Of a stretch of 64,000 bases of DNA, positions 53,939 to 54,446 are shown in pieces. The position numbers and the translations under genes were made by a program. The DNA comes from Eledone cirrhosa (taxonomy: Eukaryota), in NCBI GenBank assembly GCA_964016885.1, contig CAXHJY010000889.1, forward strand, positions 62,001 to 126,000, given 5' to 3'. Within the stretch, counting starts at the first letter, position 1; the number at the start of each line of letters is the position of its first letter. A model generated the notes under the pieces. The model worked only from the letters and a program-made list of their open reading frames with translations. It had not been told where the DNA came from and ran no database searches.

Positions 53939-54022
53939 CACGATAAATTAACGGAGGCATAGGCCGTTGTTATTCCCTGTAAATAATGTGCTCAAAGGGG
54001 AAGAGATCCTGAGCCCTTTAAA

Positions 54023-54446
54023 ATATAATATGTTGAGAAGGTAACACACCAGAGAGAGATATATAGTGCGTTATCAATAATACAGGGAAAAAAACCACCA
54101 GTGTATGGAATCTATAACCTATGAAAGGCAGACTATAGACACGATAATTAAAAATATAAATTAAAGCGTAAATAAATACCTTTATAACTATATACACACG
54201 CTGATGAACCGAGACTAGACCATTTCTTTCAACAAATTTTTTGGTGAAACATATCTTTGGATTTGTACGTCTGTTATATAGTTATAAAGGTATTTATTTA
54301 CACTTTAATTTATATTTTTAATTATCGTGTCTATAGTCTGCCTTTCATAGGTTATAGATTCCATACACTGGTGGTTTTTTCCCCTGTATTATTGATAACG
54401 CACTATATATCTCTCCCTGGTGTGTTACCTTCTCAACATATTATAT
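54023..54446. repeat. Long inverted repeat (arms 54023-54200 and 54268-54446)
   Basis: The arms are reverse complements with about 5 differences, e.g. TGTTGAGAAGGTAACACACCAG / CTGGTGTGTTACCTTCTCAACA. Confidence 0.95.
54188..54281 (+). ncRNA. Type I hammerhead ribozyme (HHR2) at the apex of the inverted repeat
   Basis: CTGATGA (54201-07); stem II ACCGAGA/TTTTGGT; GAAA (54246-49); stem III CATATC-TTTG-GATTTG with one U-U mismatch; triplet GUA (54265-67); stem I ACG/CGT continuing into the long arms. Confidence 0.88.

Follow-up and report, generated by a model that had tools for sequence, protein, structure and literature searches.

Layout of the hairpin locus

In the window analyzed here, a stretch of DNA 64 kb in length, a long hairpin with a candidate hammerhead ribozyme at its tip lies between a microsatellite and the truncated open reading frame (ORF) of a Penelope-like element (PLE). 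The features of the locus are given below by position, strand, and content.

53583-53676, plus strand: putative second type I hammerhead with a U3-A8 core; a match to our structural descriptor, 12 nt before the TA tract
53689-53938, no strand: (TA)n-type microsatellite, the left target flank; a 250-nt run of A and T only
53939-54022, minus strand: 84-nt overhang ("tail"), found on one side only; more of the family's native 3' sequence in inverted form
54023-54193, minus strand: left arm, an inverted copy of sequence that natively lies 3' of the ribozyme
54193-54200, plus strand: native 5' strand of stem I, with the inversion junction at its outer edge or within it
54201-54267, plus strand: predicted type I hammerhead core, with a long loop on stem II and a long stem III; predicted cut after 54267
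54268-54274, plus strand: native 3' strand of stem I, in which C54271 is private to the hairpin copy and breaks one pair
54275-54446, plus strand: right arm, the sequence that natively continues 3' of the ribozyme; it ends in an AT-only stretch, 179 nt past the cut site
54447-54465, no strand: short TA-rich spacer, the right target flank, inside an A+T-only tract (54438-54466)
54466-56036, plus strand: 5'-truncated EN+ Penelope-like ORF with the end of the reverse transcriptase (RT), thumb, N-rich insert, CxC-x5-C-x5-C linker, and frameshifted GIY-YIG

The inverted arms (54023-54194 and 54275-54446) are 172 nt each, lie 80 nt apart, and are 98% complementary, with mismatches at three of the 172 positions (54053/54416, 54088/54381, and 54167/54302). 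Inside them, beyond a 1-nt bulge at 54274/5, stem I of the hammerhead contributes six further pairs and one C.C mismatch (54197/54271), which brings the hairpin to a total of ~178 pairs and a predicted minimum free energy of -281.9 kcal/mol. An earlier note on this DNA had described a near-perfect hairpin of ~178 bp with a hammerhead in its loop, and this description is borne out by the arms, stem I, and the type I core. The mirror between the arms ends after 172 nt; beyond this point the overhang matches the mirror position at only 24 of 84 nt. The overhang, which the note had put at ~85 nt, is present with a length of 84 nt. The placement of the hairpin between two (TA)n tracts holds on the left, whereas the A+T-only tract on the right is 29 nt long and partly arm, and the truncated PLE ORF follows it at once. 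The two flanks share an 8-nt match, but this lies inside the TA repeats, where a TSD is unreadable. The GC content of 53939-54274 is 34%, and stops occur in all six frames of 53939-54268. The hallmark of an autonomous EN+ PLE, an ORF with RT and GIY-YIG between pLTRs, is absent from the hairpin unit, which contains no ORF.

A type I hammerhead motif at the hairpin tip

The loop between the arms carries CUGAUGA (54201-54207), GAAA (54246-54249), and a GUA triplet (54265-54267), and thus the CUGANGA/GAAA/NUH core of a type I hammerhead with three helices and an open stem I. Stem II, counted from 54208/54245, would comprise 5 bp, or 7 with G-U pairs, and stem III six pairs and one U.U mismatch. 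At the base of helix II, A54208-U54245 stands in place of the usual G10.1-C11.1 pair; the commoner variant in the family has C at 11.1 (seen at a loose end at 54254), and stems I and III stay paired across family variants as judged by eye. The start of the right-hand complementary sequence at the cleavage site (54268), to which the earlier note had drawn attention, is correct as a position but is not separate evidence, because the 3' strand of stem I follows the cut in any type I hammerhead.

The descriptor used to search for this structure was written after the motifs had been seen. When 54190-54280 was dinucleotide-shuffled 2000 times, it never matched; for 52400-57100, 3 of 300 shuffles matched, against two observed matches in that region. 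On both strands of the window, it gave three matches: the hairpin, position 53588, and satellite DNA on the minus strand (10745). Rfam hammerhead models did not match the hairpin at the gathering score, nor was it among the five matches with E values up to 10. For 54185-54285, the active hammerhead fold is predicted to be less stable than the minimum-energy structure by 1.0 kcal/mol, and in the ensemble of the full hairpin the pair probability is ~0.01 for helix II and ~0.1 for helix III. By eye, the native upstream sequence could lengthen stem I by ~6 AU-rich pairs past a bulge of ~5 nt. The continuous helix of the hairpin may therefore replace a bulged native stem I, with the perhaps attendant loss of a contact between loops 1 and 2; fast hammerhead cleavage needs a contact of the loop 1-loop 2 type, according to the available text of PMC4209133.

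Neighboring elements

The ORF that follows the hairpin has RT motifs and a four-cysteine linker, with a frameshift at the start of GIY-YIG. Homologues at E values of <=0.001 numbered 266 among 3102 candidates, and the tblastn alignments of the 120 homologues listed mostly start at 54466 and run through the frameshift into the GIY-YIG region. The four-cysteine linker marks Neptune and Nematis (PMC8557442), and the ORF is of the Neptune/Nematis type. Its asparagine-rich insert of ~80 aa in the thumb-linker region resembles the N-rich inserts of PMC3846280. From 55983 to 56967, there are six or seven diverged tandem units of 110 to 155 bp, composed of the end of the ORF together with 3' sequence of this PLE; they have a mean column identity of 71% over 6 units and contain a CAGATGA motif, with no match to the hammerhead descriptor.

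A DNA-level comparison of the arm with the 3' end of this PLE returned nothing beyond an 18-nt match (E = 0.34), and by sequence the neighbor belongs to a different family from the hairpin. We rejected the idea that the hairpin is the inverted pLTR of its neighbor, as there is no real DNA match. We likewise rejected an RT-coding right arm in frame with the neighbor, as 710 of 2000 shuffles were as good; six of the 120 homologues extended into the arm, and the profile score was -1.1 bits. No partner PLE with an end matching the hairpin unit was found.

On the other side of the microsatellite, the second hammerhead has a three-way fold that is the predicted minimum, at an unremarkable energy (z = -0.44). 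A G10.1-C11.1 pair is present, loop II is long, and loop III is palindromic. The motif forms the 3' end of a repeat-like T-rich segment (~52470-53688) that follows a poly-G run (~52434-52470). No PLE protein match was seen in the T-rich segment. The U3-A8 core variant has been described for Schistosoma PLEs (PMC4209133), and the second hammerhead shares this covariation. One TA tract holds three PLE-type pieces, as expected of PLEs that target microsatellites.

Further repeats occupy the rest of the window. A higher-order satellite (12620-19450, 27735-34571, and ~43000-50820, plus the AT-rich blocks between) consists of G-rich arrays of 26-, 32-, and 64-bp units, each ~7 kb, alternating with AT-rich arrays of 260- to 470-bp units at ~15-kb spacing. 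A decayed LINE at 59372-63200 (plus strand) has an ORF1 with Myb/SANT- and CCCH-like matches (weak Pfam) and an RT (PF00078, E = 2e-31), and upstream of it, at 57700-58820 (minus strand), part of its endonuclease region is repeated in inverted orientation. By eye, an inverted repeat of ~65 bp sits beside another TA tract at ~63575-63755.

The parent repeat family and its native order

Parts of the hairpin sequence are contained in 12 of 16 public runs listed, with no RNA run among those containing it. Four runs (X1, X4, X7, and X14) were aligned on 53939-54300 at 85% likeness. Matching material comprised 1215 contigs of X1, 1353 raw reads of X14, four contigs of X4, and three contigs of X7; X4 and X7 carry other organism labels, and in X14, a reduced-representation run, AATT sites form the ends of the molecules. 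Identities of the X14 reads were spread widely, with 123 reads at 99% or more, 393 at 95 to 99%, 502 at 90 to 95%, and 335 under 90%. The hairpin sequence belongs to a diverse repeat family that is abundant in organism A and occurs in runs with two other labels. Exact-pattern scans of metagenome contigs and viral contigs gave 0 matches.

In the family, the ribozyme is followed directly by the right arm. This order is seen in 99 X14 reads that share (agreement, 0.94) a sequence other than the arm before 54193, and in 10 X1 contigs that read from arm to stem I to stem III in mirror orientation. One X4 contig (contig 11; 419 nt, depth of 18.8) runs through 54090-54168, then from 54300 down to 54193, then through 206 further nt, and then through 53939-53962. 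Through 30-nt overlaps with contigs 9 and 10, it closes a head-to-tail cycle of ~544 nt, and its depth matches that of the two branches (7.72 + 9.65). The 544-nt unit rests on this one contig of one run, with the letters of 206 of the 544 nt not included. Compared with the window, contig 11 differs at one position in the ribozyme and at one in the arm. The overhang is likewise family sequence, as X4 contig 9 is collinear with 53939-54119 apart from one other letter and one gap, and X7 contig 13 covers 53939-54041. Taken with the native order, these contigs make the left arm and overhang a single inverted piece of the native tail. Only 54275-54300 of the right arm was aligned directly to the runs; the native state of the remainder was read through its mirror, the left arm. 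The right half of the hairpin accordingly consists of the ribozyme and 179 nt of tail and the left half of 263 nt of native tail counted from the cut site. The run alignments ruled out a reading of the left arm as a native endonuclease-end sequence that precedes the ribozyme.

Unit size, low GC, and a single type I hammerhead make it likely that the parent family consists of non-LTR retrozymes. A tandem array of the unit does not occur within the window. The earlier note had taken the hairpin for a self-contained unit; instead, the parent is probably a head-to-tail repeat of ~544 nt, and no palindromic form was seen among the four X4 and three X7 contigs. In X14, 307 reads in two groups switch at family positions ~54072-54090, with mixed other sequence before ~54075, and this switch may mark a further 3' end that is frequent among family members in organism A. 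Piles of X14 molecule ends were rejected as element ends, as all four coincide with AATT sites.

The two halves are joined in the register of stem I

Native stem I is a perfect 7-bp helix: G occupies position 54271 in 371 of 377 X14 reads and in the covering contigs of X1, X4, and X7. The native match starts at 54193, where the alignments of X4 contig 11 and of the X14 loose ends begin, and the inverted copy extends only to the outer end of the 3' strand of stem I, at the 1-nt bulge. Both halves, opposite in orientation and members of one family, are therefore joined exactly in the pairing register of stem I, with the bulge marking the join. The native stem I duplex (-8.4 kcal/mol) is stronger than all eight perfect inverted matches of >=6 bp in 54193-54446 (best, -6.2). 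As the strongest local inverted match, stem I would be favored by any annealing-driven join here, and catalysis is unnecessary. The arms also have in common an allele seldom found in the family, since X14 reads otherwise have C at 54182 (59 of 61) and G at 54287 (401 of 441), so that both arms come from one source copy. Three differences between the halves can be polarized (two through X4 and X7 contigs, plus 54271), and all three fall on the right side, for which the chance probability is 0.25.

The junction between left arm and ribozyme was crossed by none of 18 pieces among 1242, a scope that leaves out 154 loose-end rows. The palindromic junction is collinear with the reference used and so could not register as a joint. 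AATT sites flank the junction at 54159 and 54235, which makes its non-crossing in X14 weak evidence, and X4 and X7 have a depth of 0 at 54173-54185. Six joints were tabulated: two in native order, one apparent deletion variant (54130/54300; 79 reads, two starts), and three of inversion type, the last count leaving out 54130/54300 and the X1 row 54116/54090. Of the inversion-type joints, X1 has two (53965 to 54242 and 54025/54078) and X7 has one (53992 to 54254, where 13 extra letters are inserted). All three lie outside the register of stem I, and in-register joints are uncountable with the reference used. Inversion therefore also occurs in the family at places other than stem I. Two of these joints start their direct half inside the ribozyme; since the reference offered only 54195-54300 for this half, we claim no enrichment. 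Joints of opposite strands at 54194/54274 (one X1 contig and four X14 reads) and at 54168/54300 (X4) were rejected as confirmation of the palindrome because they reflect the native ribozyme-then-arm order on a reference cut at 54300. There is a weak hint that the right end of the hairpin recurs in the family: the alignment of X7 contig 15 begins at 54023 after five unaligned letters, and the plus-strand depth of X14 climbs from 102 (54015) to 146 (54026).

Origin of the hairpin

The hairpin is a real structure, a PLE-type head-to-head insertion of a retrozyme-like unit, and its layout is a known by-product of PLE insertion. An inverted 5'-truncated partner placed head to head, a one-sided tail, and a microsatellite target are all present at the locus, and these are standard for PLEs, with (TA)n as target, in the available text of PMC8557442 and PMC3846280. 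We favor, with a probability of about 0.5, a young head-to-head insertion of an apparently non-coding retrozyme-like repeat into the (TA)n tract by the RT/endonuclease of a PLE through two-ended priming. The PLE protein is described as extending both strands and starting internally at two sites, the spacing of which equals the genomic tail (PMC11167929). The enzyme, the two priming events, and the order of steps are our inferences. Both target strands would prime cDNA within the RNA, at sites 179 and 263 nt past the cleavage position. One of the two cDNAs would pass through the ribozyme as far as the outer edge of stem I and so end in a copy of the 5' strand of this stem; that 3' end would anneal to the second cDNA where the latter has copied the 3' strand, and fill-in would seal the join. 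The ribozyme would thereby serve as a patch of complementary DNA and not as a catalyst. PLE insertion has been reported to work as well with a dead ribozyme, with cleavage not required in vitro (PMC11167929).

The earlier note had proposed a PLE cDNA copied through the ribozyme and folded back on stem I to prime itself. Much of this agrees with our results, namely, a PLE-type origin, microhomology at stem I in the hairpin copy, and a polarity that fits minus-strand cDNA. Simple self-priming fails on the overhang, by which the new arm exceeds its template by 84 nt. X4 contig 9 shows these extra nucleotides to be ordinary sequence of the family, and a second cDNA or a later deletion is called for. 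Because fold-back cannot make a new arm longer than its template, a single cDNA folding back on stem I would need a right arm that once measured at least 263 nt and later lost at least 84 nt by deletion between its AT-only end and the TA repeats. Polarity, register, and the 1-nt bulge fit such an event exactly, the rare allele is present in both arms, no local inverted match is stronger than stem I, and the right arm does terminate in AT-only sequence beside TA. Self-priming is, moreover, how head-to-head PLE palindromes have been interpreted in print (PMC3846280), and siRNA from PLE inverted repeats has likewise been published (PMC3681739). Fold-back followed by deletion would leave the same junction as two-ended priming, which is argued from one locus and has to accommodate an overhang longer than the published tails of 30 to 40 nt. 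However, fold-back requires a second event, whereas PLEs routinely show one-sided tails with no deletion; other family copies may share the right end, if the weak hint holds; and the position of all three polarizable differences on the right suits two templates, though with the chance probability given above. The overhang is better explained by two cDNAs, primed from the two target strands, than by a single one that folds back, and we regard fold-back plus deletion as possible but somewhat unlikely.

It is improbable, in our judgment, that the hairpin arose at the DNA level after insertion, when DNA broke or a fork stalled in a tandem array or at the TA tract and the template was switched at the stem I microhomology, reverse transcription playing no part in the join. 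DNA breaks are known to give rise to fold-back inversions (PMC11724301 and PMC3907307), stem I is the best local microhomology, and long TA tracts flank the unit. Yet the mirror is limited to element sequence and halts at TA on both sides, and the three other inversion-type joints of the family suggest that inversion is part of the insertion route, as in PLEs. A library or assembly artifact, whether a fold-back chimera or a misjoin of two family copies, would agree with a junction that no listed piece crosses, with the zero depth of X4 and X7 at 54173-54185, and with a high-copy family within a microsatellite. A chimera would mirror everything past the turn, but here the mirror stops at 172 nt, with family sequence continuing on the left and another element on the right, and the arms differ at three sites while sharing a rare allele. 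Non-crossing says little when X4 and X7 carry other labels and X14 is a reduced-representation run with AATT ends around the junction, and an artifact is very improbable. We give still less credence to the note's picture of a palindrome that itself propagates, as a rod-like, viroid-like self-cleaving RNA or a fold-back retroelement. If transcribed, the sequence would form a long rod (at the MFE given above), and all core residues are kept. The family copies seen are nonetheless head to tail, a single ribozyme allows no unit-length release, and the ribozyme is burdened by a broken stem I pair, the U.U in stem III, A-U for G10.1-C11.1, and competing folds. Viroids are unit-length replicating RNAs with ribozymes on one or both polarities for monomer release and need no DNA stage. 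The hairpin is genomic, has a single ribozyme on one strand, and in its inverted form is not seen as a family, so that the viroid-like rod finds no support.

More broadly, PLE enzymes might integrate animal retrozyme-like units by two-ended priming, with stem I as the preferred non-catalytic site at which the two cDNAs are joined, a generalization that we put forward as doubtful. If it were true, spent copies would become long hairpins with the ribozyme at the tip and the native stem I bulge removed, and these hairpins might supply double-stranded RNA (dsRNA) against the family.

Comparison with known systems

The hairpin is neither an autonomous PLE nor viroid-like. With insertions of EN+ PLEs (PMC8557442, PMC3846280, and PMC11167929) it shares head-to-head halves and a one-sided overhang, and its locus shares a type I hammerhead near the 3' end, a (TA)n target, and PLE neighbors in the same tract. 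It differs in that the hairpin unit has no RT/EN ORF and in the length of its overhang (84 versus 30 to 40 nt), and an exact join in stem I register is not described for PLEs in the available parts of these three papers. PLEs are also known to have pairs of hammerheads on opposite strands 100 to 700 bp apart, as well as hammerhead variants (PMC4209133). The hammerheads with a large helix III of fungal and protist PLEs in the same paper resemble the hairpin ribozyme in its long helix III, which should allow a monomeric fold, whereas the hairpin ribozyme has a long loop II and A-U at 10.1-11.1.

The parent resembles animal non-LTR retrozymes (PMC7229834 and bioRxiv 10.64898/2026.07.22.740005) in its many diverged copies, in its type I hammerhead, in a GC content under 45% over the part covered, and in what would be, from one contig, a short head-to-tail unit; it appears non-coding within 53939-54268. 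Its 544 nt exceed the 150 to 450 bp given for retrozymes in PMC7229834 but fall within the 51 to 972 bp of bioRxiv 10.64898/2026.07.22.740005, and helix III has 6 to 7 bp in the hairpin ribozyme versus 1 to 2 bp in animal retrozymes. The hairpin locus itself, with one ribozyme and inverted halves shorter than a monomer in place of a tandem arrangement, is not a retrozyme. In Drosophila, inverted-repeat copies of Penelope give rise to siRNA (PMC3681739); the hairpin is likewise long and, if transcribed, would be capable of forming dsRNA.

Our literature search, mainly of open-access text without figures or supplements, returned neither a join in stem I register nor a retrozyme with a PLE-type inverted layout, and the available text of PMC6431247 likewise has nothing on stem I joins or an inverted layout of retrozymes. 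How the inverted ends of PLEs form and what purpose their hammerheads serve are both treated as open (PMC8557442 and PMC11167929), and the case for mobilization of animal retrozymes by PLEs is built solely on phylogeny and co-occurrence (bioRxiv 10.64898/2026.07.22.740005). The hairpin is a single locus, and the other joints visible in its family are located elsewhere, which makes it an illustration and a lead and not a rule. A retrozyme-like unit in a PLE-type layout of inverted halves plus tail nevertheless provides structural support for a link between PLEs and retrozymes, and its exact join in the register of stem I offers a testable, non-catalytic role for the ribozyme.
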